From: a bacterium BMS3Bbin03 | GTDB lineage: Bacteria; Zhuqueibacterota; JdFR-76; BMS3Abin05 | NCBI GenBank assembly: GCA_002898015.1 | Contig: BDTM01000035.1 | Coordinates: 42,401 to 106,400, forward strand | Length of the DNA: 64,000 nucleotides | Direction of reading: 5' to 3' | Shown here: positions 3,296 through 41,806 of the stretch, piece after piece | Layout of the letters: the number at the start of each line of letters is the position of its first letter | Numbering within the stretch: the stretch's first letter is position 1 | Made by a program: the position numbers and the translations under genes | Notes under the pieces: model-generated | Databases searched by the model: none | What the model was told of the DNA's origin: nothing | What the model saw: the letters and a program-made list of their open reading frames with translations, nothing else

Positions 3296-3344
3296 GATTG
3301 GTTCCGGTATTGTGTGGTGTGGTGGCTGTTTTGGGTTAAAAAAA

Positions 3345-12117: not shown

Positions 12118-12127
12118 AGGGGGAATA

Positions 12128-14677
12128 ATGAAATTTCTTCTTCTTTTTTCGTTCATTTTTTTGGTTCTGTTTTCATTCGTGCAAACGGTCTTTCCTCAGG
12201 TGCGGCTTTCTGAAATTATGTTTGATCCGGTCGGCAGTGAATACACCGATGAGTTTATCGAAATTTACAATCGAAGCCTGTCGGATTCGATCAATCTTTC
12301 AGGCTGGAAAATCGGCGATGAAAAATCGCTGGATGCCGTCACGGAGGCAGGGTCCGGATTAGTGCTGGCCCCGGGGCAGTACGGGCTCATCCTGGATCCC
12401 GGGTATTTTACACACTCGACCGCGTACGATTCACGCATTCCGCCCGGCGCTCTAATTCTGACCATAACCGGCAATTCGTTTGGAAGCGGTGGATTGAGCA
12501 ATTCAAAACCGGAGACGGTTTATCTGGTCAACGCAGCAGGGGATACGGTCGATGCTTACCGGTACACACTAGACAATCCGCCGGGTTTTTCAGACGAAAA
12601 AATAAACATGAATCAGAATTCAAATACAAATAATTGGAAGAACGCCCTGATCCTAAACGGCACGCCAGGGTATCTGAATAGTGTGGCACGGCGGACACAA
12701 GATGTGGCTCTGATTGCCGCCGATTGGGATTCGCTTCAAGTCCGAAACGGCGGGGCATTTTCTCCCCTTTTCAGAATCAAAAATGCGGGGACAGTTTCTG
12801 CCTCGGGCATGAATTTGGCCGTTTACGAGGACAAAGATTTTAATGAAGAGTTTGAAACCTCCGAAATAATTTTTCAGAAGGCTGTTCCGGAAACCCTTTC
12901 TGCGGAAGATTCCCTTGCGCTAAAAATCAATCTCGGGAAATTAGCTCCCGGCCTTCACCGGTTTAAGGCGGTGTTGAACTGGGCGTCCGATGAAAATATC
13001 CGGAACAATTTTCTCCTGTTTAAAGTGCCGGTAAAATTTTTGCCGCATTCTCTCCTGTTTTCGGAAATCATGTACCGTCCCGCGGCAGGCTCTCCGGAAT
13101 GGGTGGAAATCAAAAATGTTTCCGGAGCCGCTGTCCGGCTTTATCGATGGTATTTTTCAGATGAAAACACAAACCGGGCCGGTGAGGTGTTCCGGGATCC
13201 CGTCCGGCTTCAGCCGAACGGCTACGTGGTTCTGGCACAATCCGAAATTCCGGATGCGCCGGATTCACTTCGGTCCCGCGAAATTATTGTTCCGAATTGG
13301 CCCACATTGAACAACTCGGGTGACGAAGTGTGGTTGTTCGATCCGGCCGGTGCGCCGATTGCGCAGACGGACTACTCGATTCAGCCTTTAACACCGGCCG
13401 GATTTTCGCTCGAACGCATGGAATTTGCAATCGATCAGGCGGATTCGGATGCCTGGGGCGTCAGCCGAATCGCGGGCGGCACACCTGGCAGTCCCAATTC
13501 CATCAACCCGTTGTTCGTGGACGGTGTTCTTGATTGTGCGCCTGAAAATGATCCGGTAAAAGTTTATTTTAAAGATTCGGTGATTGTAAATTTCCTTTTT
13601 AAAAATGAAGGCAGGCGGAAGATCGGGGAGAGCCGGGTTAAAATTTATGAGGATCGAAATCAAAACGGGGCATTTGAGCCAGAGGAACAAATTCAGGAGG
13701 AGTCGTTTTGTTCAGAAACCTTAAATCCGGGAGATTCCGTCAATTGCAGCGTTTATCTTGATGGATTATCTTCGGGCAAACATTCTCTGTCGGCATTTTG
13801 GGAGGTTCGGGAGGAGCAAAATCCGGCCGACAACCGGGTTTCTTTTTTCGTCTGGCGGGGTTTCCCGGAATCGGCCGTCGTGCTCAACGAAGTCATGTAC
13901 GATCCCCGTCCCGGCCGGCCGGAATGGGTGGAATTATTCAATCCCGGGGCAGAAGCCGTATCGCTGCAGGATTGGCTGATTTGTGATACACGAAAAGCCC
14001 TTGGGAAGGGGGCATTTAGGCCGCCGTCTTTCATTCTCCCTGAAGATTTCAAAGTCCTCACCCGGGATTCATCCTTTTTTACGGTTTACCCGGATGTCGA
14101 TAAAGACCATGTTCTGGTTGATAAAAATTTCCCCACATTGAACAATTCGGGCGATTCATTATTTTTAATAGATTTATCCGGTGCGACGATTGACAGCCTG
14201 GTTTACCGCTCTGCCTGGGGCGGACAAAACGGCCGTTCCCTGGAGAGAATTCGCTCCGGGAATTCGACTGCGGACAGCACCAACTGGAGTGCCTCGGTCG
14301 CCGAATCGGGGTGCACCCCCGCGGCACCGAACAGCATTTTGCTTCACACGGAGGCGTCGGGCAATTGGCTGACGATTGCGCCGGATCCATTTTCTCCGGA
14401 CGGGGATGGAAGAGATGATTTTGTGACGTTCACCATTCAGACAAAATTTCCAACAGCCGTGGCTGAATTGAAAATTTTTGATTCTGTGGGCAGGGAAATT
14501 CGGAGATTACTGGCCAATCAGCCTGTTGGGAGCCGGTACGAATGCATCTGGGACGGCCGTGATGTCAACGGAAAGATTCTGCCCATGGGGATTTACATTG
14601 CCTATTTGGAAATTTATGTGAATCAAAGGAAACAAAAGTCGACTAAAAAAGTATTTGTATTAGCAAAACGAATGTGA
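12128..14677 (+). CDS. Secreted protein with three lamin-tail-domain (LTD) repeats and a T9SS C-terminal sorting domain
   Basis: It has a signal peptide (MKFLLLFSFIFLVLFSFVQT). The LTD-like motif repeats three times (SEIMFDPVGSEYTDEFIEIYN, SEIMYRPAAGSPEWVEIKN, NEVMYDPRPGRPEWVELFN), each followed by a beta-sandwich. The C-terminus (PDPFSPDGDGRDDF...KIFDSVGREI...WDGRDVNGK...GIYIAYL...KKVFVLAKRM) fits the Por-secretion tail pattern. Confidence 0.6.
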   Translation: MKFLLLFSFIFLVLFSFVQTVFPQVRLSEIMFDPVGSEYTDEFIEIYNRSLSDSINLSGWKIGDEKSLDAVTEAGSGLVLAPGQYGLILDPGYFTHSTAYDSRIPPGALILTITGNSFGSGGLSNSKPETVYLVNAAGDTVDAYRYTLDNPPGFSDEKINMNQNSNTNNWKNALILNGTPGYLNSVARRTQDVALIAADWDSLQVRNGGAFSPLFRIKNAGTVSASGMNLAVYEDKDFNEEFETSEIIFQKAVPETLSAEDSLALKINLGKLAPGLHRFKAVLNWASDENIRNNFLLFKVPVKFLPHSLLFSEIMYRPAAGSPEWVEIKNVSGAAVRLYRWYFSDENTNRAGEVFRDPVRLQPNGYVVLAQSEIPDAPDSLRSREIIVPNWPTLNNSGDEVWLFDPAGAPIAQTDYSIQPLTPAGFSLERMEFAIDQADSDAWGVSRIAGGTPGSPNSINPLFVDGVLDCAPENDPVKVYFKDSVIVNFLFKNEGRRKIGESRVKIYEDRNQNGAFEPEEQIQEESFCSETLNPGDSVNCSVYLDGLSSGKHSLSAFWEVREEQNPADNRVSFFVWRGFPESAVVLNEVMYDPRPGRPEWVELFNPGAEAVSLQDWLICDTRKALGKGAFRPPSFILPEDFKVLTRDSSFFTVYPDVDKDHVLVDKNFPTLNNSGDSLFLIDLSGATIDSLVYRSAWGGQNGRSLERIRSGNSTADSTNWSASVAESGCTPAAPNSILLHTEASGNWLTIAPDPFSPDGDGRDDFVTFTIQTKFPTAVAELKIFDSVGREIRRLLANQPVGSRYECIWDGRDVNGKILPMGIYIAYLEIYVNQRKQKSTKKVFVLAKRM

Positions 14678-14684
14678 GGCAGGG

Positions 14685-15083
14685 ATGGGAAAGACATTCA
14701 AAACGGAACTTCAAGTGCGCTCCTACGAATTAGATTTTTACGGACATGTCAATAATGCCATTTATTTGAACTACCTTGAATACGCTCGGGGGAACTATCT
14801 TGAGCAGGTTGGATTTTCTTTTAAAGGCCTTATCAAACAGGATGTTTATCTGCTTGTCGCCCGGGTGGAAATGGATTACAAAGCCCCGGCGCACATGTCG
14901 GATTGGCTTGAAATTGAAGGCTTCATTGAAAAATTCGGGACGAAGAGCCTGGTTTTTCGTCAGATTATTCGAAACAGAACCAGTGCAGAACTGGTTTTGG
15001 ATGCGAGATCAACCCTTGTTTTTGTCAATGGAAAGAGGAAGACAATTCCGATTCCGGATAATTTCAAAGAGAAATTTCTTTAA
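14685..15083 (+). CDS. Acyl-CoA thioesterase, hotdog fold (YbgC/4HBT family)
   Basis: 132 aa. YELDFYGHVNNAIYLNYLEYAR is typical of the 4HBT family. Confidence 0.7.
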   Translation: MGKTFKTELQVRSYELDFYGHVNNAIYLNYLEYARGNYLEQVGFSFKGLIKQDVYLLVARVEMDYKAPAHMSDWLEIEGFIEKFGTKSLVFRQIIRNRTSAELVLDARSTLVFVNGKRKTIPIPDNFKEKFL

Positions 15084-15105
15084 CCTGTAACCGAAGGAGG
15101 CAAAC

Positions 15106-16188
15106 GTGCAGCGAATATTTGAAAAAATTAGAGAAAGCGCCGGGTTAGAAATTTCTCAATATGCGTTCGACAAAATATTAAGGGCGATGGCCACAGATTC
15201 TTATGGATGGAGAATTGTGGATATTTCGGATCAGCCGTTTAATTTGGTGGCGGAAACACTCAAGCAAATGGAAAATACCGGTTATCTTAAATTTGTGGGC
15301 AGCCGAATCGATCTCACCCGGAATGGGAAGAATCTGCTGCGCCAGCGCGGGATCTACCCAAAAGCCGACTTCCGGTGCACCCATTGCAAAGGCACCGGAT
15401 ACGATGTGTCGACTTACGAAGAAATGATTGCGAAATTTAACGAAACGCTTGAAAAGCTGCCGCGCCCGGAGTCGATTCAGAATCGCTGGATTATGACCCC
15501 GGAGTCGATTTTCAGGCGCGCCATGCTGATGGTACAAAAGGGTAATTCGGCCGGTAAGGAAATCGTGATTTTGAAAGATGCCGATTTGTTGAGCCTCGCA
15601 CTTGCATTAACCCGGCTCCCCGATAAAATTACGGTTCTGGAGGACAATCGTGAAATGGCGGATTATCTGTTCAATTTGTCGCACACCGCCCGTCTTCCGA
15701 TCGAAGTTCACGAATATGATCTGAAAGATGCCATACCTAAAAAATTCTTTGGCAAATACGATGTGTTCATGGCCGATCCGCCGGAAGGCTATGAAAGTCT
15801 GATGCTTTATTTAAAACGGGGGTTGGCGCTTCTTCGCCCGGGGGAAGGCCAGGCAGGATTTTTCGGGTTAACGCACACGGAGGCCTCTCTTCGGAAATGG
15901 CAGACCCTGCAGCGGGAATTATTGCTGATGAACGATATCGTCATCACGGATATTTTGTATGAATTCACCGAATATGAAAATGAAAATTTTCAACCGGATA
16001 AAATCCAGGCGGATGTTCCCATCTTTCAACAAAAGCCGACCGTCCCGTGGTACAAATCTTGTGTGTATCGTCTGGAGACTCTCGAGGAATTTGAGCCGCT
16101 CAGCGAGCCAATTGAAATCCATGACGATTTAATGAATGAAGAACAATTGGCTTATTCAAAAAAAACGGAGATCAAAGAGGAAACGTGA
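15106..16188 (+). CDS. DUF43/BpsA-like protein (candidate branched-chain polyamine aminopropyltransferase, Rossmann fold)
   Basis: 360 aa. The N-terminal domain looks like a winged helix. The C-terminal Rossmann region has IVILKDADLLSLALAL, which resembles the GDDDLxSxA loop I recall for DUF43/BpsA. This assignment is made from memory of the family only. Confidence 0.4.
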   Translation: MQRIFEKIRESAGLEISQYAFDKILRAMATDSYGWRIVDISDQPFNLVAETLKQMENTGYLKFVGSRIDLTRNGKNLLRQRGIYPKADFRCTHCKGTGYDVSTYEEMIAKFNETLEKLPRPESIQNRWIMTPESIFRRAMLMVQKGNSAGKEIVILKDADLLSLALALTRLPDKITVLEDNREMADYLFNLSHTARLPIEVHEYDLKDAIPKKFFGKYDVFMADPPEGYESLMLYLKRGLALLRPGEGQAGFFGLTHTEASLRKWQTLQRELLLMNDIVITDILYEFTEYENENFQPDKIQADVPIFQQKPTVPWYKSCVYRLETLEEFEPLSEPIEIHDDLMNEEQLAYSKKTEIKEET

Positions 16189-16238: not shown

Positions 16239-18863
16239 TTGAAAAATTCCTTTCTGGAAAAGCGGCTTGAAATTTTCAGGCGTCATCGGGGGAAATGGGA
16301 GGGCGCAGCCGCGGCGCAGGAGCTGACGCAGCTCACCGATGAGCTGATCACCCGGACTTTTTCGGATCAGTTCGGAGACCAAAATTCGGGTGTGGCCGTT
16401 TTTGCGCTGGGCGGATACGGGCGCTGCGAGCTCAATCTTCATTCCGATGTCGATTTATTGATTGTCACCGAAAACTCGAGTGCCGCTTTTCAACGATCAC
16501 TTCAGAAGATCATTCAATCCTTCTGGGACCTTGGGCTGGAAGTCGGGCATCAGGTGCAATCGATCGAGCAAACGATTGAGCTTGCCCTGCAGGAATGGAC
16601 CTTTCGGACGACTTTGCTGGAAATGCGCACTTTATGGGCCGATTTAAATCTGGTTGCGGAGGTTCAGAAGAACCTTCAAAGCCGGGTCATCTTTAAAGAC
16701 TACAAATCATTTCTCAAGACGATTCTCGCGGAGACAGAGACGCGTCATCAAAAATACGGCAATTCGCCGCAGTTACTGGAACCCAATCTCAAAAATGGAA
16801 TGGGGGGGCTGCGTGATTTTCACACACTGCTCTGGCTTTACCACAGCCACCCGGACTTTTCCCGGAAATTTGAAATACATCGAACCGCCCGCTCCGCCAC
16901 GCTTCATCTTTTAGAGAATTTCTTTCATCAGGCTTTTTTGCTGGAGGGCGATCATTTTGCTCTGAAACACGCGTTTGAATTTTTCATGACGCTGAGAAAT
17001 GAACTGCATTTTCTGACCGGGCAGAAAACCGACCGGCTGGAATATGGGCTGCAAAAGAAAATCACTTCAACACTCGGTTATGAAGATGTCCCGGAAATTC
17101 TGGCTGTTGAACAATTTCTGCGGGAATATTACTTGCACGCCCGTAAAATTTACCACACGTATCAAATTTTGTCTGAACTGTTCATACCCAAAATGACCTA
17201 TTTGCAAAAAGTCGAGGCCGATTCTTCGCAAGAAACACTTGCGCCGGCGATTTCAAGAATCGGCAATTCCATTGTGTTCAGCGGCGTTTCCACCCGGAAT
17301 TTTTCCGACCAGCCGGAGCTTCTGATGAAGATTTTTTTCTGGAAGCAAAAATATGATCTGAAATTGGGGGAATTCCTGAGAAGCCTGCTTTACCACCAGG
17401 CACAGAATCTGAATGAAGATTTCCAGAGAAATCAGGAAGTCATTCGTGTGTTTTTGCAGATTATGCAGAATCCCGAACGGTTGGGGGACGTCCTGCGGAC
17501 CATGCACGAGCTTGAGATTCTGGATCGCTTTCTGCCCGAGTTTTCAGCCATCACGGCTCTGGCGCAGCACGATCTCTATCATTACTATTCTGCAGATGAG
17601 CATACGCTTCTGGCCATTCAAAATGTGGCTGATTTAATGAACAGGGAAAAAGACCCATTCGAACTAAAATCGACATTAGAAAAACTGCCCCAAAAGGAAA
17701 TCTTGTTTTTGGCGCTTCTTTTTCACGACGTCGGAAAAGCGCTCCCCGGTTCGCATATTGAAACCGGCGTTGTACTGGCCAGGGAAGTTTTTGAGCGCTG
17801 GAAATTTTCGGGAGAAGCGGCTGAAAGAGTGCTTTTTCTGATTGAAAATCACTTAAAGATGGAACAATTTGCCTTCCGGAGGAATAGCGAAGATCCCTCC
17901 ACTTTGCAGCAATTTGCGAAAATTGTGCAGAACGTTCAAAATTTAGAATTGCTGTACCTGTTAACTTACGGCGATTTATCGGCTTTAAATCCAACCATCT
18001 GGTCTGAGTGGAAGGCCATTCAATTGTGGGAGCTCTTCCGGAATACGAAGCGCTATTTAATGGGTAAAAGCTTTTCTGCGCCTTTAAGTGAAAAAGAATT
18101 GATCCGTCTGTCCGAAGAAGTTTTGGCTTTTCTTTCTCCGGACATGAATCAAAACACGGTGTTAAAACACTTAAAACTGCTGGAAGAAGATTACTTAAAA
18201 ACATTTGAATCGCGTGAAATCGCACGGCATTTGGGGTTAATTGCCGATCTTCAGCAGCGCACGGCTTCTTTTGATTTTCGGGATCTCCGGACGCACTGGG
18301 ACGTCACCATTGTGACCCTGGATAAACCGCATTTGCTGGCCGAGATCTGCGGCGTGCTGGCTGCGAATGATCTGAGTATCTTTTCGGCTCAAATCTTCAC
18401 CCGCCGGGACGGTGTGGTGATCGACAGATTTCGTGTTCTGCCCTTTTCGAGCAATATTCAATTTTCCGAAATTGTTCAAAAAGACATCCTGGAGGATTTG
18501 ATCCGGGTCCTGTCCGGAAGAGAAGATTTAGGGCGCCTCCTCGCGCAGCACAAACGCCGCTGGAAACGCCGAAAATTTAAGGAAAGCGGCCGGCCGGATG
18601 AAATTGTGTTTGACAATCAGCTCTCGCCGGATTTCACAATCATCGACATTTTTACCGATGATGCGCCCGGCCTGCTCTACCAGATTGCGGACACCCTTTC
18701 AAAAAGCGGTGTCGATATTAGATCCGCTAAAATTTCTACACGGGTCGATCAGGCCTCCGACAGCTTTTATGTGGTCGACGATCAGGGACAAAAAATTTTG
18801 GATAAAACCCGCCAAATCAAAATTAAAGAAAGTGTCCTGCAGTCCCTCCGGCGCCGGCTCTGA
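16239..18863 (+). CDS. glnD: [Protein-PII] uridylyltransferase / uridylyl-removing enzyme
   Basis: 874 aa. It has a nucleotidyltransferase motif (VFALGGYGRCELNLHSDVDLLIV), an HD domain (LLFHDVGK), and two C-terminal ACT-like domains. The start is probably TTG at 16239. Confidence 0.8.
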   Translation: MKNSFLEKRLEIFRRHRGKWEGAAAAQELTQLTDELITRTFSDQFGDQNSGVAVFALGGYGRCELNLHSDVDLLIVTENSSAAFQRSLQKIIQSFWDLGLEVGHQVQSIEQTIELALQEWTFRTTLLEMRTLWADLNLVAEVQKNLQSRVIFKDYKSFLKTILAETETRHQKYGNSPQLLEPNLKNGMGGLRDFHTLLWLYHSHPDFSRKFEIHRTARSATLHLLENFFHQAFLLEGDHFALKHAFEFFMTLRNELHFLTGQKTDRLEYGLQKKITSTLGYEDVPEILAVEQFLREYYLHARKIYHTYQILSELFIPKMTYLQKVEADSSQETLAPAISRIGNSIVFSGVSTRNFSDQPELLMKIFFWKQKYDLKLGEFLRSLLYHQAQNLNEDFQRNQEVIRVFLQIMQNPERLGDVLRTMHELEILDRFLPEFSAITALAQHDLYHYYSADEHTLLAIQNVADLMNREKDPFELKSTLEKLPQKEILFLALLFHDVGKALPGSHIETGVVLAREVFERWKFSGEAAERVLFLIENHLKMEQFAFRRNSEDPSTLQQFAKIVQNVQNLELLYLLTYGDLSALNPTIWSEWKAIQLWELFRNTKRYLMGKSFSAPLSEKELIRLSEEVLAFLSPDMNQNTVLKHLKLLEEDYLKTFESREIARHLGLIADLQQRTASFDFRDLRTHWDVTIVTLDKPHLLAEICGVLAANDLSIFSAQIFTRRDGVVIDRFRVLPFSSNIQFSEIVQKDILEDLIRVLSGREDLGRLLAQHKRRWKRRKFKESGRPDEIVFDNQLSPDFTIIDIFTDDAPGLLYQIADTLSKSGVDIRSAKISTRVDQASDSFYVVDDQGQKILDKTRQIKIKESVLQSLRRRL

Positions 18864-18865: not shown

Positions 18866-21800
18866 CTAAAGCCCCCTGCGGCTCAACTGATTTTTGGTTT
18901 TTCGGAGGATCTCCCGGACGGTTTCCATTTGCGATCGCAAAGTTTTAAGAAACGCTTCGCCCGTTTCGAACCCCAGTGCTTTTGCAAGAAAATCCAATTT
19001 TTCCGGTTGTAACGGAATTCTGGCTTTCGGGCGTTCCAGTCCGATGTGAAGATAGGTTTCAATCAAACGGTAGAAATGGTAGCTTTCTCTTAAACGGCCG
19101 GCATCATCCGCAGAAAGAATTCCGCGGTCTGCTAATTTCGGAAGAATGTCTATTGGTGTTCCCCGCCGAATTTCTTCGAATTTCCGTCCGTATTTTAATT
19201 GAAGCGCCTGCGTCAGAAACTCAATATCGACAATACCGCCGGGGCTGTTTTTAAAATCCAGCTCCTTTGAAAATCCCCTGCGGGCTTTCCGGTGGATATT
19301 CTCGAGCATTGAAAAGATCTCTTCAATCTGTTTTCTTTCATACGCTGAATGAAATATGAAGTCTTGCAGAAAAAGCGACAGTTTATCCCAGACGGCGGGA
19401 TTGCCTGCAATCAAGCGCACGCGCAGCAGGGCCTGACGTTCCCACAATTGAGAACGGTTCAGGAGATACTTTTTGTACGAATCGACTGAAATAAGAAGGG
19501 GCGCCTGAGCGCCCTCCGGCCGCAGGCGCGCATCGATTTTATAAAGTTGTCCCCACGGGGTGATCCGGTTGAGTCCGGAAATAAGCTTTTGAAGCACGGC
19601 TTCCTGTGTTTGAAGGGGAGGATCCTTTTCTTCAGCCGTTAGAAAAATGACATCCAGGTCTGAGCCGAAATTGAGCTCCTGTGATCCGAGCTTGCCCAGG
19701 GCTAAAACGGCTGCCGGAAAAGCGCCGCGCCATGCGTGGCCGGTCAACACATGCGACAGAGTCAATTCGAGCGTCCCGTCTGCCAGAGCGGAAAGTTCTC
19801 GAAACGCCTGCTCGGGCGAAACCAGTCCGGCTTCAAACCGAACACCAATCCGGACAAAATGAAAATTCTTGAGCCGGAGCAACTGATTGAACCAGTTTTT
19901 TGCGTTCGTCGACTCCATTCTCTGAGAAAAATCCGTTTTAAATGAGGTTTTTGCAAAAGGCAAATGCAGGTTTTCCACATTCGTTAAAATTGAGAGAAAT
20001 TCGGGAAACAGCCCGAACGACCGGGCAAAAAGCGGCGCTCTTCCGCAAATTTGTGCGAGGAGGGAGAGAAATTTCGGGTTTTCATTCATTAGATTGTACA
20101 GGTTTTGAGGACTTCCGTAAGCGCCTGCCGCGTTTGAAAATTGCAGCAACGCCTGATCCGCGGAGGGCTGCCTCTGAACTTCTTTAAGGAGTTTTGGGAA
20201 AAGAGATTGAAAAGAATGTCCTGCCGCCGGCGTTAACGGTTTTTGACGGCTTCCTTTTAAAAGTTTCTGAATGGCCTGGTGGCTTTGTTCCGCCTTTTTG
20301 AATCCCAGTTCAATGAAATGTGATTTTACAGCGGGTGTCAGCTTTTCGGAGAGCAGAATTTCTTCGGAAAAATCATCCGCTTGCGGGGGCACGGTTTCCC
20401 CCATAATGGAATTGTAAATCTTACCGACTTTTTTAGTGTGAAGATGGACGGCTTTCCGAAAATCCCGTCTATTTTGAAATCCCATTTTCCGGGTAAGAAT
20501 AATGAGTTTCTTCGAATCGGTCGGCAGGAGATGTGTCTGGCGCCAATTTTCAAGTTGAAGATGGTGTTCAATCTTTCTGAAAAAAATGTAAGCCTCTTTC
20601 AGATCGACGGCTTCTGAATCCGTGAGCAGTTTTCTGTAGTGCAGATTCTCAATCGCCTTAAGGGAGTTTGATTCCCGAATATCCGAAAAAATTCCGCCGT
20701 TCATAAGCTGCAGTGCCTGGATAGAAAATTCAATATCCCGGATGCCGCCGTGCCTGAGTTTAATATTGACTTGATCCGTTTGCTGCCCGGCTAATTTTTC
20801 TTCGATGGTACGTTTGATTTCACCGATTTCTTCCAGCGGACTTTTAAAGAATGTTTTCGGATAAACAAAGGCCTGGAGAGCGTTTAAATAGGCGTGTCCA
20901 AATGGAAGATTTCCGGCCACGGGTCGTGCTTTAATCAGCATTTGGCGTTCCCAGAGCTGGCCGCGAAGTTCGTAATAATGCAGATAGCTGGCAAACGATC
21001 GTGCCAGCGGTCCGGAAGCGCCGTCCGGACGGAGCCGCGTGTCCACACGATACAGGGCCTCGCCGTTTGAGAATGTGCTCAGCGTGTGGACAATTTTTTC
21101 GGCGAGCTGATTAAAATATTCGTGAGTGGTAAAGGCTTTTTTCGTGTCGAGGCGCGTTCCCACGCCTTCTTCCGAATAAACAAAAATAATGTCAATATCC
21201 GATGAATAATTAAGTTCTCTGCCGCCCAGTTTTCCTAGGCCGATAATTGAAAAATCTTCTGTTACCGTCCCGAATTTTTTGTTAAATTCCGCTGAATGAA
21301 GCGTCAGCACGGTTTCAACAATCGCGTCCGCCAGATCGGACAGATTTCGTACAGTGGTTTGAAAATTACTCCAGCCCATAATGTCCAATGTGCCGATGCG
21401 AAGGATCTCCCGCCGTTTCAAGCGTTTTAACAGCTCGACTTTTTTCTCCGTCGACGTATATTGGCCGGACATCGTGTTAAATTCCCTGTAAAAAGAATCA
21501 GGGTCAAATTCGATCTGGTTAATTCCGGAAGTGACGAGCCAATAAAAATATTCCGGATGCCGGATCATGATATCGGCGAGATAATTGCTGTGCCCGAAAA
21601 GCGTCAGCAAAATTTCGAGGAAGTGCGGGTACGCCGATAAAAAATGGTAAAACGACGTTTGATTGATGACGGCCTGGGCCATTCTTTCAAAATGATTGAG
21701 GGCCTGGTCCGGGTCAGGAACGGCGGCGAGAATTCGGCCTATTTCTGGCCGGAGTTTTTGGAAGAGAGGCTTGCCAAAAGGATTTGTCTGAAGGCGATCA

Positions 21801-21880
21801 AAATTGGATTTCGCCGAACGGGGATTTTTGAAAATAGTCCAATTCATTATCATTTTAATATACAAAGCATCCGTTGACAA
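18866..21880 (-). CDS. glnE: Glutamine synthetase adenylyltransferase / adenylyl-removing enzyme
   Basis: About 1000 aa. It has two nucleotidyltransferase modules (GLGKLGGRELNYSSDIDIIFV and ALGKLGSQELNFGSDLDVIFL), each with a GlnE-type helical domain. It is convergent with glnD with a 2-nt gap. The start is either TTG at 21880 or ATG at 21853. Confidence 0.8.
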   Translation of the reverse strand: MSTDALYIKMIMNWTIFKNPRSAKSNFDRLQTNPFGKPLFQKLRPEIGRILAAVPDPDQALNHFERMAQAVINQTSFYHFLSAYPHFLEILLTLFGHSNYLADIMIRHPEYFYWLVTSGINQIEFDPDSFYREFNTMSGQYTSTEKKVELLKRLKRREILRIGTLDIMGWSNFQTTVRNLSDLADAIVETVLTLHSAEFNKKFGTVTEDFSIIGLGKLGGRELNYSSDIDIIFVYSEEGVGTRLDTKKAFTTHEYFNQLAEKIVHTLSTFSNGEALYRVDTRLRPDGASGPLARSFASYLHYYELRGQLWERQMLIKARPVAGNLPFGHAYLNALQAFVYPKTFFKSPLEEIGEIKRTIEEKLAGQQTDQVNIKLRHGGIRDIEFSIQALQLMNGGIFSDIRESNSLKAIENLHYRKLLTDSEAVDLKEAYIFFRKIEHHLQLENWRQTHLLPTDSKKLIILTRKMGFQNRRDFRKAVHLHTKKVGKIYNSIMGETVPPQADDFSEEILLSEKLTPAVKSHFIELGFKKAEQSHQAIQKLLKGSRQKPLTPAAGHSFQSLFPKLLKEVQRQPSADQALLQFSNAAGAYGSPQNLYNLMNENPKFLSLLAQICGRAPLFARSFGLFPEFLSILTNVENLHLPFAKTSFKTDFSQRMESTNAKNWFNQLLRLKNFHFVRIGVRFEAGLVSPEQAFRELSALADGTLELTLSHVLTGHAWRGAFPAAVLALGKLGSQELNFGSDLDVIFLTAEEKDPPLQTQEAVLQKLISGLNRITPWGQLYKIDARLRPEGAQAPLLISVDSYKKYLLNRSQLWERQALLRVRLIAGNPAVWDKLSLFLQDFIFHSAYERKQIEEIFSMLENIHRKARRGFSKELDFKNSPGGIVDIEFLTQALQLKYGRKFEEIRRGTPIDILPKLADRGILSADDAGRLRESYHFYRLIETYLHIGLERPKARIPLQPEKLDFLAKALGFETGEAFLKTLRSQMETVREILRKTKNQLSRRGL

Positions 21881-22150
21881 ATCAACAAAGAAGTGCTTTT
21901 TATAAAAAGGAACCTTGCAGATGGTCGGGAATTGAGCAGTTGGTTAATTTATTGTCATATTTTTAACCGAAATTGCACCATTTTAGAACAGTATCCGCAG
22001 TCATCTTTGGAGTAAGCCCATTAAATTGGGTCTAATCCGGGATATTCAAAATTGTAACAAAATTGCAGCAATTTGTAAAATAATGAGTTAACACTTTCTC
22101 TGTCATTGAATTGAAATATTTCTCATTTTTTAGGCGAAATAATAAAATCT

Positions 22151-22165
22151 TGGCATATTGGTTGC
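22151..22165 (+). promoter_or_regulatory. Candidate sigma54 (-24/-12) promoter, TGGCAT-N5-TTGC
   Basis: TGGCATATTGGTTGCT matches the TGGCAC-N5-TTGCW consensus with exact spacing. It lies about 65 nt upstream of the response-regulator ATG at 22230. Confidence 0.35.
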
Positions 22166-22229
22166 TGGATACTAAAGTGAATTTGAGAAAAGAAAGAAAA
22201 CGTAATTTTGCTGAGAGAGGATGTAACCG

Positions 22230-22910
22230 ATGAGAGAAGAGAAAATTTTAGTAGCTGTTGCGAATAACCTTCTCCGAACGAAAATAGCCAGAACACTCAG
22301 GGAAGTCGGATTCGGCGTGGCGGGCGCCAAGGATGGCAAAGATGTCATTGCGCGCGTGAACGAAGCCCTGCCGGTTATCTTATTCATGGATGTGGACTTA
22401 CCGGAAATTTCGGGATGGACCATCTGCAAGGAATTAAAGGATAATCGACTGACACGCCGAATTGGTATTATCTTAAGCGCGTATGAATCCGATGAGAATG
22501 ATCGCGTGAAAGGATTGGAATTAGGGGCCGATGATTTCATCGATTATCCGTTTGGAATGCGGGAAATGCTCGCCCGGGTAAAGGCTTTGTATCGCCGCAT
22601 TCGTTTGGATCGAAATCAAATCAAAGTGCGGGACATTGAAATCGATCTGGACGAGCATCGCGTTAAAAAGGCCGGCCTGCCCATTGATTTAACCTACATT
22701 CAATTTAAATTACTCTACTTGCTGGCATCACGGAGAGAAAATGTCTTCTCACGCCAGGAAATATTGGAGCGGGTCTGGGGGCATAAAATCTATGTCACCA
22801 ATCGAACCGTGGACGTTCACATAAAACGGCTGCGTGAAAAATTAGGCGAAGCAAAGTACCCGTCCAAATATATCGAGACGATTCATGGTGTCGGCTATCG
22901 TTTCATGTAA
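22230..22910 (+). CDS. Atypical OmpR/PhoB-family response regulator (receiver-like domain lacking the acidic pocket and conserved Lys, plus winged-helix DNA-binding domain)
   Basis: 226 aa. The C-terminal winged helix (RTVDVHIKRLREKLG...GVGYRF) is canonical. In the receiver domain, ILVAVANN replaces the usual ILVVDDD, and DYPF replaces (T/S)KPF. The phospho-Asp position is retained (FMDVDLP). Confidence 0.7.
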   Translation: MREEKILVAVANNLLRTKIARTLREVGFGVAGAKDGKDVIARVNEALPVILFMDVDLPEISGWTICKELKDNRLTRRIGIILSAYESDENDRVKGLELGADDFIDYPFGMREMLARVKALYRRIRLDRNQIKVRDIEIDLDEHRVKKAGLPIDLTYIQFKLLYLLASRRENVFSRQEILERVWGHKIYVTNRTVDVHIKRLREKLGEAKYPSKYIETIHGVGYRFM

Positions 22911-22980: not shown

Positions 22981-23019
22981 CCCAAGGGGCCTTCGGCGAG
23001 AGCCGGGGGCTTTTTTTTA
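22981..23019 (+). terminator. Probable intrinsic terminator (GC-rich structured segment plus T8 run) between convergent genes
   Basis: CCCAAGGGGCCTTCGGCGAGAGCCGGGGGCTTTTTTTT lies directly after the regulator stop codon. The stem is imperfect. Confidence 0.4.
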
Positions 23020-23170
23020 TTGAGACCATTTAAAGAACCAGCCGGGTTATTTCATAAACCGCGGAGTGCGCCGAGGACGCCGAATTATTTCCATTAAGAT
23101 TAATCATAAAAAAGGTAAAAAATTCAGCCGCCAAGCCGCCAAGTCACAGTTGGTTTATTCATGGGCGGCT

Positions 23171-28246: not shown

Positions 28247-31039
28247 ATGGGACTGCGTCGTATTTGTCCAATCGCTGGGGTTTTCCTGCTTTCTTTTCTG
28301 ATGTTGTATCCCCTGTTTTTATGGGCGGGAACCACCGGAAAAATTGCAGGATACGTCCGTGACAAAAGCAACAACCAGCCCTTACCGGGAGCCAATGTAA
28401 TCATTGTTGGCACGCAAATGGGGGCGGCCACGGATGCAAATGGTTATTTTTATATCATTAACATTCCGCCTGGTGTTTACAAAGTACAGGTCCGGATGAT
28501 TGGGTATGAAACGGTTTTGATGAAAAATGTTCGGGTGCAGGTTGATCGAACCACAAAAACCAATTTCTCTCTTCCGTCCACCGTTTTAAAATTGGGAAAA
28601 GAAATCGTGGTAACGGCGGAACGTCCTTTAATCGAACCGGATATCACAACCAAAACCAACACCATTTCTGCAGAAGAATTAAAGACGATGCCCGTGAGAG
28701 GCATCGCAGATATTATGACATTACAATCGGGTATCATGGAGGTCATGGGATCTTTCAACAAAGTTCCCGGATTTGATTCCCGCGGAATTGATGATGTGCA
28801 TGTGCGCGGCGGGCGGAACGGTGAAATTGCCTACATGATCGACGGGATGTATGTGGAGGATGCGATTTACGCCGGGATGGGCACGCTGCTCAATCGGGAA
28901 GCTATCCAGGAATTGACCATTATTACCGGGAATTTTAACGCGGAGTATGGTCAGGCCCAATCTTCGATCGTGAATATTGTGACAAAAGAAGGCGGCGCAC
29001 GGTATACCGGATTAATGGAAGCCAGTACCGGTGAAATTGCAGGAAAGCTTGGTTCCAAGCCGGATGACCTGCGTGATGCGCACCAATTAATCGGTTCGTT
29101 CGGCGGTCCCGTGCCGCTGATCAAGCGCATGAATTTCTTTCTTTCCGGAAGTCAATCGTTTAAACGCTACGCGGTTTATCAATTCGACAACATCGTTTAC
29201 GATCCGAAGAATCCGGATAAAAGCACCTGGTCTTACGGTGCCTATCGAAAGGCATTTGAATGGGATACCATCCCGGGGTGGCGCGCATTTGGATTTAACC
29301 ACACCTGGGATTTTTCCGGAAAACTCACTTACCGGTTTAATCCCAGCATGAAATTAATATTAACGAATCGTTTAACAGAACGTCTGTTTCGGAATTTCGA
29401 TTGGGCCTGGCAGTATGCGGAGGCGGGCCGGCACGTGGTGAAGGATAGAACGGATCAACAGGGCCTGATCTGGACGCACCAGCTCAGTTCGTCCACATTT
29501 TATAATATTCGCGCCAGCCGTTTCTGGAAAGGGCGGACCTTTCGGGTGCACGGCATCAATAATCACGAATTGACGCCCGGGCATGCGGACAAGCTGATTG
29601 AACTGGGTGCCACAAGAGACTCAAGAGGATTTGGACCTCAGGAATACCCCACACGGGCCACAGTAGGGGGCTTTTATACGCCCATGAAATTTGTGCGTTT
29701 TGACACCCTAACGGACGGAGAGATTCGTCAGGTTTACACCGGAAGTGCCACACAATACTGGACACGCACCTATCAACAAACCTATGAATATTCATTATCA
29801 CTCACCAGCCAGATTCAGCGTCATCACCAGATTAAAACGGGTGTCGAGTACAAGACCTATGATCTGTATTTTCTTGAATTTCAATATCCGTGGATTCCAA
29901 ATCCCTACTCCGAATATTATATGAACCATCCGGAGGAAGGAAGCTGGTACCTCCAGGATAAAATGGAATACGAAAACCTGATTATAAATGCCGGCATACG
30001 CTTTGATTATGCCAATTCAAAAGGGTCTATGTGGGAAGACCCGACAAACCCGGGCAGTCCGGTGGTGACCGGGAAAAAGAAATATCAGTGGTCGCCCCGG
30101 CTCGGAATCGGGCATCCCATTACGGACAAAGCCACATTCCATTTTGCTTACGGGCAATTTTTTCAGGTGCCTGAATATCGGAACCTGTACACCAATAACG
30201 ACCGCGATCTCTCCACGCCCCGGCCTTTGTTTGGAAATCCCAATCTGAAGGCACAGCGAACCATTGCGTACGAAGTTGGCATTCGTCAGCAAATCGGACA
30301 AAATTGGGCGGTTGACATCACGGCCTGGTCAAAAGAAAGCAGTGAGTTGACGGGGACCATTAACGTAACCGGTTTTGACCCGCACGGCATCGGTTTGTAC
30401 GATTATTATGTGATGGTAAACCATGATTACGGAAGTTCTCGCGGATTGGATATCAGCATCCAAAAGCGTTACAGCAATTATTTTCGCGGGCAGCTTAACT
30501 ACACCTATTCGGTGGCAAAAGGCAATCAGCGGTATTCGTGGTCAGGATACTGGAACAGTGTCACGGATGAAACCGAACCCAAGAAGGAATACCTGATGCC
30601 CTGGGATCAGCCGCACACACTGGATGCCAACGTTTCGATCATCTTCCCGCGGTATTTCGGCCCGAAAGTCTGGAAATTTAAACCGTTATCCGAGTTTTAT
30701 ATGAATTTTATTGTGCGGCTCCACAGCGGGTATCCGTATACTCCGAGTTCCGGCGGTCAATCGTTAGAGCCGAACTCGGGAAGGCGCCCCTGGTTCTTCT
30801 CGATCGATACGATGATTCGCAAAGATATCCGGATTTTGGGGAATACAAAAATAGCCTTGTTTTCCAGAATTTACAACTTAACGGATCGAAAAAACCCCAT
30901 TTACGTGTATTCAGAGACGGGAAGTCCAACGGATCCGGGGCCTTACGCCAGTAAAACAGCTACTTCGACCTATTACGACAGACCGCATTATTTTGGCCCA
31001 AGGCGGACTATCGACTTTGGTTTGCAGTTTTTATTTTAA
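28247..31039 (+). CDS. TonB-dependent-receptor-like outer-membrane beta-barrel with an N-terminal carboxypeptidase-regulatory-like domain
   Basis: 930 aa with a signal peptide. The CarbopepD_reg-like fold is GKIAGYVRDKSNNQPLPGANVIIVG...DANGYFYIINIPPGVYKV. A plug-like region and a long Tyr/Gly-rich amphipathic barrel follow. The protein ends in a terminal Phe (GLQFLF). Confidence 0.65.
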   Translation: MGLRRICPIAGVFLLSFLMLYPLFLWAGTTGKIAGYVRDKSNNQPLPGANVIIVGTQMGAATDANGYFYIINIPPGVYKVQVRMIGYETVLMKNVRVQVDRTTKTNFSLPSTVLKLGKEIVVTAERPLIEPDITTKTNTISAEELKTMPVRGIADIMTLQSGIMEVMGSFNKVPGFDSRGIDDVHVRGGRNGEIAYMIDGMYVEDAIYAGMGTLLNREAIQELTIITGNFNAEYGQAQSSIVNIVTKEGGARYTGLMEASTGEIAGKLGSKPDDLRDAHQLIGSFGGPVPLIKRMNFFLSGSQSFKRYAVYQFDNIVYDPKNPDKSTWSYGAYRKAFEWDTIPGWRAFGFNHTWDFSGKLTYRFNPSMKLILTNRLTERLFRNFDWAWQYAEAGRHVVKDRTDQQGLIWTHQLSSSTFYNIRASRFWKGRTFRVHGINNHELTPGHADKLIELGATRDSRGFGPQEYPTRATVGGFYTPMKFVRFDTLTDGEIRQVYTGSATQYWTRTYQQTYEYSLSLTSQIQRHHQIKTGVEYKTYDLYFLEFQYPWIPNPYSEYYMNHPEEGSWYLQDKMEYENLIINAGIRFDYANSKGSMWEDPTNPGSPVVTGKKKYQWSPRLGIGHPITDKATFHFAYGQFFQVPEYRNLYTNNDRDLSTPRPLFGNPNLKAQRTIAYEVGIRQQIGQNWAVDITAWSKESSELTGTINVTGFDPHGIGLYDYYVMVNHDYGSSRGLDISIQKRYSNYFRGQLNYTYSVAKGNQRYSWSGYWNSVTDETEPKKEYLMPWDQPHTLDANVSIIFPRYFGPKVWKFKPLSEFYMNFIVRLHSGYPYTPSSGGQSLEPNSGRRPWFFSIDTMIRKDIRILGNTKIALFSRIYNLTDRKNPIYVYSETGSPTDPGPYASKTATSTYYDRPHYFGPRRTIDFGLQFLF

Positions 31040-31106
31040 GCTGAATCATTTGTGGTGTCAATTAAGGATTTTAATTGTAGCTGTTGTGAATGATGGAGGT
31101 CTTGTA

Positions 31107-34100
31107 ATGAATATCAAACAAAAAACGCTTTTTATATTGATACTTGGGCTTGCAATCGGCTTTTGGGGGCTGCAGTTTTCAAGCCTTGCGGCAGATAAAA
31201 AATCGGCCAAAAACAGCTATCTTAAGAAACCCCAAAGAAATATCGATTTTGCAGCGGGAATTTTGGATGCCGGTAAATTACAAAATGCTGTTTTTAATGA
31301 CGGGCGATTGGCCACATGGGCGTACCGGCCCTCCGTACCGGCCGCTTTTTACAAGGGTTGGTCCTATATTCCCGATTTAAGTATGATCATTGGTATCCCG
31401 GAGGATTCCAGTTGGACCCCTAAAAAACTGGATCCGGTCACAAATAAAATGATCAGTATGGGACCCACTGTTTCAGAGAGATTTGTGGCCAGTGACTGGG
31501 GCCCCAGTGCGGGAGCGAATGGAAAGTTACATTCCGGAGATGCCACCGTCGGCGATGTTCTGACCGGAACCAGCATAGGCGCTGTTCCGCTGATGGCCAC
31601 GAGCACGATTAAAAAAAGCTGGCCCAAAGATGACAGCGGCAACCGGTTCTGGCCGGGACCCTGGGCAGTAGACCCAATAACGGGAAAGGTTTTAAAAGGG
31701 CATTTTACCTCGGACAAAGACATCTTTTTCAGCATCACCGATTATGATGTCAATGACCAGGATGTTCCCTATGCGGATTCGGATAACGACACCCTGCAGG
31801 GGTACCCCATCGGGCTGAAATTGGATATCTCCGGCTATTCATACGGCCGGTCCTACGCAGAAGACATCTTATTCTTTCCGATGAAAATCATTAACACAAG
31901 CAAAAATAATTATCATGGGATGTATGTTGGCTTTTATATGGATGCCGACATCCCGGAGTACAACTTAAAAACGACCGTTAACGACCGTATGGACTGGATG
32001 AGTTTCATTAAGGATGAATATGATCCTGAAACGGATTCCACCTATCATTACAATATGGCGTACATTTACGACTACCGCTGGGGCACCGGGGATTTTAGCG
32101 GTGTATCCGATCCGGATGCCTGGAAAGTGTATGCCAGCATGAAATTGCTGGACACACCCGTTAACCCCAAAACCGGAGAACAACTGGGAATCACGGATTG
32201 GCACTGGTTCCAATGGGAGAACCGCCCGGGGATCATTGATTCCAAACGGCAGGAACTGATTCAATATAAAGTCATCAGCGGCGATACATCCGGATTGACC
32301 CCGGAAGAAAGCGATGCCTATTTCTGGCCCGATCCTTCCGGTCATCTGGATCCGCATTTTGATTCGCCCGAAGGCATTCGAACGATGTATCCGGATGGAT
32401 TGGACTGCGTGTTTATCATGAGTTCGGGGCCTTTTGACCTGGCCGCCGGGGATACGGCCGTGTTTTCATTTGCCATGATTATGGGAGATAATTTAAAAGA
32501 TCTTAAATTTAATGCCCGTACCGCCCAGTTTATGTATAATTTGCACTATCAGGGTGCCAATCCGCCGATAGCCCCACACGTCACGGCAGTTCCCGGAAAA
32601 GGGCGAATAACCCTTTATTGGGATCGCGTGGCGGAATCTTCTATCGATATTATGACGGGATACCAGGATTTTGAAGGGTATCGAATTTACCGCACGACGA
32701 GTAATCCCGTCAACAATGAATGGGGTACCGAAATTCGAAATGATCTGGGAAACGTGGTTGAGTTTGTGCCGGTCGCCCAATTTGACTTAGCTGACGGGAT
32801 CAAAGGTCCCGATCCTCAGAACCCTTATTTCAATCTGGGGAATGACACAGGCTTGAAACACTCCTGGACAGATTCCACCGTTTTGGACGGCGTGACCTAC
32901 TGGTATGCCGTCGCCCCTTATGATCGCGGTGTTCGTCCCGAAACCGAATTCAATCCGGATCATTGGCCCCTGCTGGCAGCCCTTGAAACCGCAAAAGGCA
33001 CAAACCCGGATGCGACACCGAATTTGGTGGAGGTTGTGCCCGGTCCAAAGCCTTCCACATATGTGCCGCCGGAGATTGTCCTGAAACCGAAGCCCGGAAC
33101 TCTCGGAAATGGAAAAATCAAAGCTTCGATCATCGATCCGGTGGCCATTACCGGACATACTTATGAAATCAGTTTTGATGATACAACCACGCGTGGAAAA
33201 CTTCTTTACAACGTCTGGGATGCGACCGATCAGGCATGGGCTCTAAAAGGAGCCGATGAAACCCGGGGGCAGGAAGGGCCGTTCTTTGACGGTTTGCAGC
33301 TTTTGATTGATAATTATCAATCAATCGGACTATTGGCGGATTCCTCGGGGTGGACCACCGCGACAGGCGATTCAACGGATGTGACATGGACTTATTCGGC
33401 GACCGGTTTTAGTAATCCGCACAATTATGAAATTCGATTCACGGATGAAGGAGATACGAGTGTGTTCATGCCTCCGCTGATAAGAGTGCCCTTCGAGGTC
33501 TGGGATGTGACCGTCGATCAAAAATTGGATTTTATCAGTTTTGCGGCGAGTACGGACACAACGCCGGAGATGAAAAATACCTGGACAAGCGGCGATGCGT
33601 TTATGATTCGTGAAAAAGTGAGGGGCCGGGTGCGAAGTACCTTCAGCTTTAAATTGGAAGGGATTCCGGATACCGTCATCACAACAATCGATACGACGAT
33701 TAATGGGGCGGACACGACAATTGTGGACACGACCATTACACCCAAAATACCCCCGAAAACGGGTGACGTGCTGCACCTGATCACGACAAAACCGTTTAAA
33801 CGCGACCGTGATGTTTTTGTGCTTGAAACTTCCCATTACAAACTCGAAAAAAGGATTCAGCAAAAAGAATTAAAAATGGTTCGGGTGGTGCCCAATCCTT
33901 ACATTGTTTCGGCAGAATGGGATTTAAATCCGTACATCCGGCATATTCAGTTTCGGAATTTGCCGAACGAGTGTGTGATTCGTATTTTCACATTAACAGG
34001 AGACAAGGTTAAAACGATTCATCACAAGAACGCGACGCAGGGATGGGAATTCTGGAATATGCAGACGTATAACGGGCAGGAAATCGCGTATGGCTTGTAT

Positions 34101-34163
34101 TTATACATAATTGAAACGCCGGACGGCAAGACGCAAATGGGTAAATTTGCGGTTATTAAATAG
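31107..34163 (+). CDS. Large secreted protein with a variant T9SS-type C-terminal beta-sandwich, candidate PorU-like from synteny
   Basis: About 1018 aa. The signal peptide is MNIKQKTLFILILGLAIGFWGLQFSSLAA. The C-terminus (VVPNPY...NLPNECVIRIFTLTGDKV...GLYLYIIETPDGKTQMGKFAVIK) resembles a Por CTD. It sits immediately upstream of the PorV-like gene. GGAGGT lies 6 nt before the ATG. Confidence 0.5.
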   Translation: MNIKQKTLFILILGLAIGFWGLQFSSLAADKKSAKNSYLKKPQRNIDFAAGILDAGKLQNAVFNDGRLATWAYRPSVPAAFYKGWSYIPDLSMIIGIPEDSSWTPKKLDPVTNKMISMGPTVSERFVASDWGPSAGANGKLHSGDATVGDVLTGTSIGAVPLMATSTIKKSWPKDDSGNRFWPGPWAVDPITGKVLKGHFTSDKDIFFSITDYDVNDQDVPYADSDNDTLQGYPIGLKLDISGYSYGRSYAEDILFFPMKIINTSKNNYHGMYVGFYMDADIPEYNLKTTVNDRMDWMSFIKDEYDPETDSTYHYNMAYIYDYRWGTGDFSGVSDPDAWKVYASMKLLDTPVNPKTGEQLGITDWHWFQWENRPGIIDSKRQELIQYKVISGDTSGLTPEESDAYFWPDPSGHLDPHFDSPEGIRTMYPDGLDCVFIMSSGPFDLAAGDTAVFSFAMIMGDNLKDLKFNARTAQFMYNLHYQGANPPIAPHVTAVPGKGRITLYWDRVAESSIDIMTGYQDFEGYRIYRTTSNPVNNEWGTEIRNDLGNVVEFVPVAQFDLADGIKGPDPQNPYFNLGNDTGLKHSWTDSTVLDGVTYWYAVAPYDRGVRPETEFNPDHWPLLAALETAKGTNPDATPNLVEVVPGPKPSTYVPPEIVLKPKPGTLGNGKIKASIIDPVAITGHTYEISFDDTTTRGKLLYNVWDATDQAWALKGADETRGQEGPFFDGLQLLIDNYQSIGLLADSSGWTTATGDSTDVTWTYSATGFSNPHNYEIRFTDEGDTSVFMPPLIRVPFEVWDVTVDQKLDFISFAASTDTTPEMKNTWTSGDAFMIREKVRGRVRSTFSFKLEGIPDTVITTIDTTINGADTTIVDTTITPKIPPKTGDVLHLITTKPFKRDRDVFVLETSHYKLEKRIQQKELKMVRVVPNPYIVSAEWDLNPYIRHIQFRNLPNECVIRIFTLTGDKVKTIHHKNATQGWEFWNMQTYNGQEIAYGLYLYIIETPDGKTQMGKFAVIK

Positions 34164-34200
34164 ACACAAAACTGCCATTAAATTTTTCGGAGGAAAATCA

Positions 34201-35223: not shown

Positions 35224-35264
35224 ATTGCTTATATTACTTTGTGTTAATTTCTTATAGTCCCCTG

Positions 35265-35407
35265 AAAGGAGGTGAGGTAGCCCAACCCATTTGAATGAAT
35301 CCTATCTTATGAAATCGCGAAAGGAGGTGATATAGCAGTTGTATCGGATGCTGAATTCGATGAAAAAGTTGCGATTTAATCAAAAGCATGAAGGAGGATT
35401 AAAATGA
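35265..35407 (+). promoter_or_regulatory. 5' leader with repeated AAAGGAGGTGA (perfect anti-Shine-Dalgarno complement) motifs and overlapping mini-uORFs
   Basis: AAAGGAGGTGA occurs at 35265-35275 and 35330-35340, and GAAGGAGGA at 35390. A 19-codon uORF (35348..35407, MLNSMKKLRFNQKHEGGLK) ends in ATGA, overlapping the main ATG at 35404. Confidence 0.5.
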
Positions 35408-37542: not shown

Positions 37543-37584
37543 TTTAGACTTCATAAGAAGAAAATTGCATGTGTTTAACGAATG

Positions 37585-37623
37585 GCAGAGGATGGGAAAC
37601 CGTCCTCTGCTGCTTATTTTTTG
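37585..37623 (+). terminator. Rho-independent terminator
   Basis: The GCAGAGGA / TCCTCTGC stem is 8 bp with a 10-nt loop, followed by TGCTTATTTTTTG. Confidence 0.6.
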
Positions 37624-41639: not shown

Positions 41640-41656
41640 TACCGAAAAAGGAGGTG

Positions 41657-41779: not shown

Positions 41780-41806
41780 TTTCAAACCAAAATGGAGGGT
41801 AACAAC

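Follow-up and report, generated by a model that had tools for sequence, protein, structure and literature searches.

Regulators with pseudo-receiver domains make up about one eighth of all receiver domains, and little is known about how they are turned on and off (PMC12632262). HP1043/HsrA of Helicobacter pylori and CosR of Campylobacter are orphan OmpR/PhoB regulators of this kind, with a degenerate receiver and phosphorylation-free activity, and for HP1043/HsrA the controlled quantity is apparently the protein level and not a switch (PMC5253667, PMC8345958, PMC12632262). ChxR of Chlamydia trachomatis, another atypical OmpR/PhoB protein, needs no phosphorylation to dimerise, bind DNA and activate transcription (PMC3960148). 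Actinobacterial GlnR is likewise an atypical OmpR-family regulator without a cognate kinase, in which the Asp is kept for dimer stabilisation, not for phosphorylation (PMC12632262, citing Lin et al. 2014). Synthesis control of constitutively active pseudo-receiver proteins is an already recognised model (PMC12632262). In this study, we analysed a gene encoding an atypical OmpR/PhoB-family response regulator (22230-22910, + strand; 226 aa, ATG start), together with its control region, in a 64-kb stretch of DNA from bacterium BMS3Bbin03 (GenBank assembly GCA_002898015.1, contig BDTM01000035.1, positions 42401 to 106400), hereafter called the window.

We favour, with moderate confidence, the reading that this protein would be an atypical response regulator that forms dimers constitutively, with sigma-54- and activator-dependent synthesis setting its activity in a logic like that from NtrC to Nac. 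It belongs to the known atypical OmpR-family regulators, to which it adds a well-defined conserved control region, and by analogy of predicted behaviour its nearest known proteins are HP1043/HsrA, ChxR and GlnR. HP1043 and CosR share its fold (2hqr and 8uvx are among the Foldseek matches) but differ in sequence (23-28% identity) and come from another phylum, and no sigma-54 promoter is described for HP1043 in PMC5253667, PMC8345958 and PMC12632262. ChxR differs in activating its own promoter, we have not seen sigma-54 dependence described for it, and it has no specific sequence relationship to the present protein. A literature search returned no paper on this regulator family, nor on sigma-54 in Calditrichota. 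The family is uncharacterised and, judged from its sequences, Calditrichota/KSB1-wide.

A degenerate receiver on an intact DNA-binding domain

The protein consists of a pseudo-receiver (about residues 1-123) and a winged helix (about residues 131-226), and this pairing of a receiver-fold N-terminal domain with a winged-helix C-terminal domain places it in the OmpR/PhoB family. Both domains score above their Pfam cut-offs, with 62.4 bits against 30.2 for Response_reg (PF00072) and 92.9 bits against 26.2 for Trans_reg_C (PF00486). The AlphaFold2 model, computed from 40 aligned family sequences, has a pLDDT of 86.4, rising to about 90-96 in the receiver part, and shows a (beta-alpha)5 domain followed by a winged helix. 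Its best Foldseek matches in the PDB are PrrA, MtrA, RpaA, KdpE and CosR, the first four matching over the full length with E-values of ~1e-18 to 1e-20. The predicted receiver superposes on that of BeF3-activated PhoB (1zes) at 1.2 A, with a Foldseek TM score of 0.94 normalised to the target.

The residues of the phospho-acceptor pocket were read from HMMER alignments to MtrA, PrrA and RegX3, and, with MAFFT, from 169 family members aligned to E. coli PhoB, whose sequence was entered by hand; the two approaches concur on all pocket positions. The acidic pair (DD) is replaced by V10/A11 (ILVAVANN opposite ILVVDDDA), the Thr/Ser by A84, with S83 lying one residue too early, and the Lys by Y106 (DYPF opposite MKPF). 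The phospho-Asp is retained as D54 (FMD), so that one of the five catalytic residues is left in a receiver of which the canonical, phosphorylatable form has DD, D, T/S and K all present. The sequence thus falls within the published definition of a pseudo-receiver or atypical response regulator (PMC12632262). A first-pass annotation of this DNA, made from the sequence alone, had described the Mg-binding acidic pair and the conserved Lys as lost and the phospho-Asp position and the winged helix as kept; the alignments, the Pfam score and the structural model uphold this description, and the alignments add the loss of the Thr/Ser. With such a pocket, the protein probably cannot carry out Mg2+-dependent phosphotransfer.

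Full-length homologues found by protein search share 53-85% identity with the regulator, and the nearest named ones come from Calditrichaeota and KSB1 metagenome-assembled genomes. Related loci, given here by number, were collected in two scans. A scan of a genome collection with the family alignment used the pattern RTVDVHIK, which is common to ordinary OmpR regulators; 78 of its 80 loci were unrelated, and only L005 and L006 were usable. A scan with the family-specific peptide TYIQFKLLYLLA gave 80 further loci from metagenome contigs. Among 169 distinct family proteins, neither the complete catalytic quintet nor the two acidic residues together occur in any (0/169 in both cases), the second acidic position being acidic in 17. 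The pocket Lys is kept in 102 proteins and the phospho-Asp in 148 (88%), whereas in the remaining 21 the Asp is replaced by N, E, G, H, F or Y. From the loss of the metal ligands and the replacement of the Asp in these 21 relatives, we infer that activity is independent of Asp phosphorylation. The retention of D54 in 88% of the family is reminiscent of GlnR.

We consider it very improbable that D54 still accepts phosphate from a distant kinase or acetyl phosphate. The pocket has lost four of its five catalytic residues, both metal ligands among them, and the relatives that have replaced the Asp carry an essentially unchanged DNA-binding domain. No histidine kinase was found among the real open reading frames of at least 150 aa in the window, and most relatives examined have no adjacent kinase either; the first-pass annotation had noted no adjacent kinase gene and had called the regulator an orphan. 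What speaks for phosphorylation is the Asp itself, kept here and in 148 of the 169 relatives, and a small HisKA/HATPase_c gene of 399 aa that lies ~0.8 kb upstream of the regulator in one KSB1-like subclade (L089 5985-7184, + strand), with the sigma-54 promoter described below standing between the two genes. In addition, phosphorylation can survive substitutions at DD, T or K (PMC12632262).

Conservation is distributed very unevenly along the protein. In the 40-sequence alignment the C-terminal domain is nearly invariant and the N-terminal domain highly variable, and pairs among the 169 proteins share on average 90% identity in the DNA-binding domain, compared with 43% in the receiver. Eighteen receiver positions are at least 90% conserved, and 11 of them fall within residues 87-123, the alpha4-beta5-alpha5 region (Fisher p = 0.004): E89, G99, A100, D101, D102, E112, A115, R116, A119, R122 and R123, all identical to PhoB. 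The alpha4-beta5-alpha5 region is the dimer face of active OmpR/PhoB receivers. This pattern fits a pseudo-receiver that has been maintained as a dimerisation module.

The same domain might instead be a sensor, in which a small ligand or a covalent modification other than at Asp switches DNA binding and sigma-54 control is one layer, a reading that we regard as unlikely. Its receiver fold is retained at high model confidence, and four alpha3 residues that play no obvious catalytic part (W63, C66, K70 and D72) are conserved throughout the family. Such mechanisms are documented, with JadR1, RedZ and Ser/Thr-phosphorylated GlnR as precedents (PMC12632262). However, the conserved positions cluster on the dimer face and not in the pocket, the alpha3 Cys is also present in canonical MtrA and RegX3, and a conserved ligand pocket is unlikely because the receiver evolves so fast.

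A conserved sigma-54-type promoter

The regulator gene is preceded by a Shine-Dalgarno-like sequence found by inspection, GAGAGAGGA (22213-22221, + strand), which ends 8 nt 5' of the ATG. An intrinsic terminator with a 14-bp stem and a T-run (22984-23023, + strand) follows 74 nt 3' of the stop codon, and the gene is therefore monocistronic. Beginning 79 nt 5' of the ATG is a sigma-54-type promoter, TGGCATATTGGTTGCT / TGGCATattggTTGCT (22151-22166, + strand), with TGGCAT at -24 and TTGCT at -12, so that the -24 GG and the -12 GC are present at the correct spacing. It is the sole match to TGGCAY-N5-TTGCW in the window, where 0.09 would be expected by chance.

This site, already pointed out as TGGCAT-N5-TTGC in the first-pass annotation, is borne out by comparison with the orthologues. 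In the first 11 orthologous loci the element is present in 11/11, always on the coding strand and 66-266 nt 5' of the ATG. Among 73 metagenome family loci that extend at least 300 bp upstream, it precedes the gene in 71, with 64 strict matches and 7 differing at the last base alone, and is missing in two (L112 and L164). When 653 kb of family loci were searched, 73 matches lay at most 700 nt upstream of the regulator gene, versus 11 elsewhere on both strands (1.3 Mb of strand sequence). In consensus, the family site reads TGGCAT-A-N4-TTGCA, and 68 distinct promoter contexts keep the TGGCA and TTGC blocks unchanged while their flanks vary. Together, these data are strong comparative evidence for a functional sigma-54 promoter.

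That the -24/-12 match is fortuitous and the gene is transcribed from a housekeeping-sigma promoter seems scarcely credible. A sigma-70-like TTGGCA-17-TAAAGT (9/12 positions) does overlap the site, and no RpoN box turned up in six-frame translations of all 1.95 Mb of collected loci, a result that is uninformative for this genome. Nevertheless, a GG-N10-GC core with its full TGGCAY and TTGC blocks held invariant between free flanks, recurring in nearly all orthologues at variable distance from the ATG and so rarely expected by chance, argues against coincidence. Just 3' of the -12 element, at 22167-22200, a block A(A/G)AAGTG followed by TTG is kept in L085, L120 and L149, unlike the remainder of the leader; this block may represent the region of the transcription start, or an operator.

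A dyad element upstream of the promoter

In an alignment of the intergenic region with L149, L085 and L120, the sole conserved islands are the promoter and a block at 21920-21992. The block, taken as 21922-21992 without an assigned strand, is a candidate enhancer (upstream activating sequence) or autoregulatory site. It contains TGGTCGGGAATTGAGCA (21922-21938, with the family motif on the - strand, 14.6 bits), TGGTTAATTTATTGTCA (21941-21957) and TGTCATATTTTTAACCG (21953-21969, 12.0 bits). The family motif was obtained from 58 dereplicated upstream regions aligned on the -24 element. This 17-bp motif, TGGTYGATTTTCRACCA, is an imperfect 7-3-7 dyad, frequently with a second copy 19 bp downstream, and it is placed 156-230 bp 5' of the -24 element in 58/58 loci, with a good score in most. 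With the 17-bp matrix, 54 of the 61 matches of at least 16 bits in the 653 kb lie within 700 bp upstream of the regulator gene, and shuffled windows give ~0.15 matches per 64 kb. We consider the dyad a candidate enhancer for a dedicated sigma-54 activator.

Two known types of site were compared with this block and rejected. Of the enteric NtrC site TGCACC-N5-GGTGCA there is just a half-site-like TGCACCA at 21984-21990, unconserved beyond the close clade. Tandem Pho boxes, which are 11-bp direct repeats, were rejected as the primary reading, the repeat period here being 19 bp and the half-sites inverted. The motif gave no evidence for a wider regulon, with ~5 distinct extra matches in 653 kb versus ~1.5 expected. 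The best dyad match of the window, stronger than the intergenic copies with 21.1 bits, is TGGAAGATTTCCGGCCA at 20903-20919 (+ strand) inside glnE; L086-type loci also have one copy inside glnE, at another codon position. This copy may be due to chance or be a remote site.

Synthesis control as the proposed mode of action

In the pathway that we propose, an AAA+ enhancer-binding protein would bind the conserved dyads ~160-230 bp upstream and activate sigma-54 RNA polymerase at TGGCAT-N5-TTGCT, and the monocistronic regulator mRNA would be translated. The regulator would then dimerise constitutively via its conserved alpha4-beta5-alpha5 face and bind a conserved DNA target via its nearly invariant PhoB-like recognition helix, forming the second tier of a sigma-54 cascade. 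Because such a dimer would be controlled by synthesis and blind to phosphorylation, its output would be set by protein amount and not by phosphorylation. A comparable logic is known from Nac of Klebsiella and E. coli, which needs no co-effector, is made from a sigma-54 promoter that depends on an activator, goes on to act at other promoters, and encodes the signal in its amount. Nac is a functional analogy only, being a LysR-type protein unrelated in sequence and fold.

Some relatives offer candidates for the upstream signalling tier. L118 has a NifA-like sigma-54 activator directly 3' of the regulator (1806-3335, + strand). In L087 the activator is of the NtrC/AtoC type, carries a GAFTGA loop and adjoins a PAS kinase (11883-15345, + strand), the pair lying 3 kb from the regulator. 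The HisKA/HATPase_c gene of the KSB1-like subclade is a further candidate.

Several points weigh against synthesis control of a phosphorylation-blind dimer. The real open reading frames of at least 150 aa in the window include neither rpoN nor a sigma-54 activator, the sigma-70-like sequence overlaps the -24/-12 site, and what is seen of the promoter is its conservation, from which its activity is inferred. The dyad matches of the window itself are weak, at 12.0 and 14.6 bits. It is also plausible that the upstream element is the regulator's own operator, because the DNA-binding domain is invariant and HP1043 binds an inverted repeat head-to-head, a mode that would suit the dyad found here. 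On the protein side, D54 is retained, pocket substitutions of the kind seen here are at times tolerated (PMC12632262), and dimerisation, DNA binding and the loss of phosphorylation are all read from sequence. The link to nitrogen considered below is a matter of synteny within one clade.

The family is an unusually clean case among pseudo-receiver regulators: the phospho-chemistry is gone, the dimer face and the DNA-binding domain are kept, and the control elements can be read off the DNA, namely the sigma-54 promoter, the enhancer-like dyad and, among relatives, the structured leader.

Relation to PhoB

By sequence, the protein is a PhoB-like offshoot that fails PhoB membership, and it is not a GlnR orthologue. 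An identical protein has been deposited as 'phosphate regulon transcriptional regulatory protein PhoB' (GBD93332.1; bacterium BMS3Abin05, GCA_002898095.1). Its resemblance to E. coli PhoB includes the recognition helix, RTVDVHIKRLR here versus RTVDVHIRRLR in PhoB, the identical interface residues of alpha4-beta5-alpha5 and the close superposition on 1zes. In contrast to PhoB, it has lost DD, T and K, has no PhoR/pst neighbourhood, carries a His in place of the wing Arg and is preceded by a sigma-54-type promoter.

The possibility that it is a degenerate PhoB orthologue running the phosphate regulon, as its GenBank name implies, is quite improbable in our view. The top NCBIfam model is indeed PhoB TIGR02154, and the recognition helix and wing are highly PhoB-like. 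However, its score of 201.8 bits is under the cut-off of 296.2, two other PhoB models are missed as well (NF053854, 166.7 vs 270; NF007546, 159.4 vs 471), and no NCBIfam equivalog model reached its cut-off. The pocket is destroyed family-wide, PhoB R219 in the wing corresponds to an invariant His in the family, and no phoR, pst or phoU adjoins the gene in the window or in the nine annotated contexts examined. The deposited name is probably an over-annotation, since all three PhoB cut-offs are missed and the phospho-acceptor pocket is lost; the public annotation of GBD93332.1 is corrected here to this extent.

The divergent glnE gene and the nitrogen link

The regulator gene lies near two genes of nitrogen control. 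glnD, for PII uridylyltransferase (16239-18863, + strand; TIGR01693, 605 bits vs a cut-off of 519), is convergent with glnE, for glutamine synthetase adenylyltransferase (18866-21853, - strand; PF03710, 320 bits; PRK11072, 557 bits, above cut-off). The glnE start at 21853 is that of the public gene call, and the longest open reading frame begins at a TTG at 21880. The regulator and glnE are divergent across a 376-bp intergenic region. The convergent glnD-glnE pair that the first-pass annotation had placed beside the regulator is thus confirmed by scores above the curated cut-offs.

A divergent glnE is found in the window, L085, L086/L095/L152 (one sequence), L088, L120, L142 and L149. In the clade of 226-aa regulators, this gives 7 distinct loci out of 8 that could be assessed, at GlnE identities down to 38%; L087 is the locus without it. 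glnD adjoins glnE also in L085 and L120. No glnE or glnD was found in any family locus outside the 226-aa clade, where the neighbours vary. The nitrogen link is therefore a lead for that clade and not a property of the family. Within the clade, the divergent pairing suggests a nitrogen-status input or regulon. The analysis gives a first point of access to the regulation of glnE/glnD-type nitrogen control in phyla that are little studied and mostly uncultured.

From this neighbourhood, the first-pass annotation had drawn a parallel with GlnR, and a GlnR-like master regulator of nitrogen assimilation acting on glnA, amtB and glnB-type promoters is possible but doubtful. The regulator is divergent to glnE and near glnD, the pairing persists in its clade despite strong divergence of GlnE, and its conserved promoter is of a type, sigma-54, that is often used in nitrogen control. 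GlnR is itself a phosphorylation-independent OmpR-family protein (PMC12632262), and the nitrogen context here may be shared with it. Nonetheless, the linkage to glnE and glnD stops at the border of the 226-aa clade, and the upstream dyad is unlike the enteric NtrC site. The window itself has no glnA, amtB or comparable nitrogen target gene. By sequence and fold the PhoB/MtrA/PrrA group is nearest and the GlnR entries are low: 8hig and 8hih match residues 95-226 only, at ~1e-17 to 1e-18 versus 1.6e-35 for MtrA, and 8hih ranks 46th in Foldseek, so that no specific relationship to GlnR emerges. The mode of expression also differs, since Actinobacteria are not known to have sigma-54. A GlnR-like nitrogen role is thus not established for this regulator.

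A structured leader RNA in related loci

In ~35 of 88 family loci, the stretch from the -24 element to the ATG is 190-317 nt long and contains a structured element of 95-135 nt with a closing helix of 12-17 bp; this element is absent from the window. Examples are L005 3847-3951 (+ strand), L100 3467-3572 (- strand), L106 3215-3322 (+ strand) and L124 2406-2518 (- strand). In a 14-sequence alignment, whose seed sequences had been picked for a long stem, 96% of the cells pair, 13 of the 14 pairs show compensatory changes, and 0/500 shuffles reach these values. Searched with a covariance model, 722 kb yielded the element in this leader alone, at one copy per locus. GGAAGGGTTT and GCACTGCATC recur as conserved words in its interior. 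No Rfam 15 family matched this element or anything else at the gathering and E-value thresholds in the locus, the whole window and 20 related loci. Supported by covariation, the element is a candidate for a new cis-regulatory RNA.

More tentatively, the family might represent a lineage-wide master regulator of Calditrichota/KSB1 with a standing like that of RpaB or HsrA, a proposal that we put forward as speculative. Such a regulator would have abandoned phosphorylation and would receive its inputs only via synthesis, through the sigma-54 enhancer and, in many lineages, through the ~100-nt leader RNA acting as a riboswitch or protein-binding attenuator; the clade of the window would have lost the leader and become coupled to glnE. 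If true, this would offer a natural and dissectable example of pseudo-receiver switching and a new class of cis-regulatory RNA.

Other genes in the window

A BpsA_C-domain gene (branched-chain polyamine synthase C-terminal domain; 15106-16188, + strand) lies directly 5' of glnD, and the order thioesterase gene, BpsA_C gene, glnD is kept in L085, making a polyamine/nitrogen neighbourhood possible. On the other side, the 3' neighbour of the regulator, convergent with it, is a fused homoaconitase-type gene. This fused large-plus-small-subunit gene of the aconitase family (23171-25138/25285, - strand) exceeds the cut-off of the homoaconitase equivalog TIGR00139 (850 bits vs 530), a hint of an alpha-aminoadipate-type route to lysine in this bacterium. 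Further downstream, 28247-45705 (+ strand) is a run of large secreted or outer-membrane genes. Their products include a TonB-dependent receptor and a PorV-like protein (34111-35223), and three others carry type IX secretion C-terminal sorting domains, one of them a 1271-aa S8 subtilase. This run is consistent with an organism of the FCB group.

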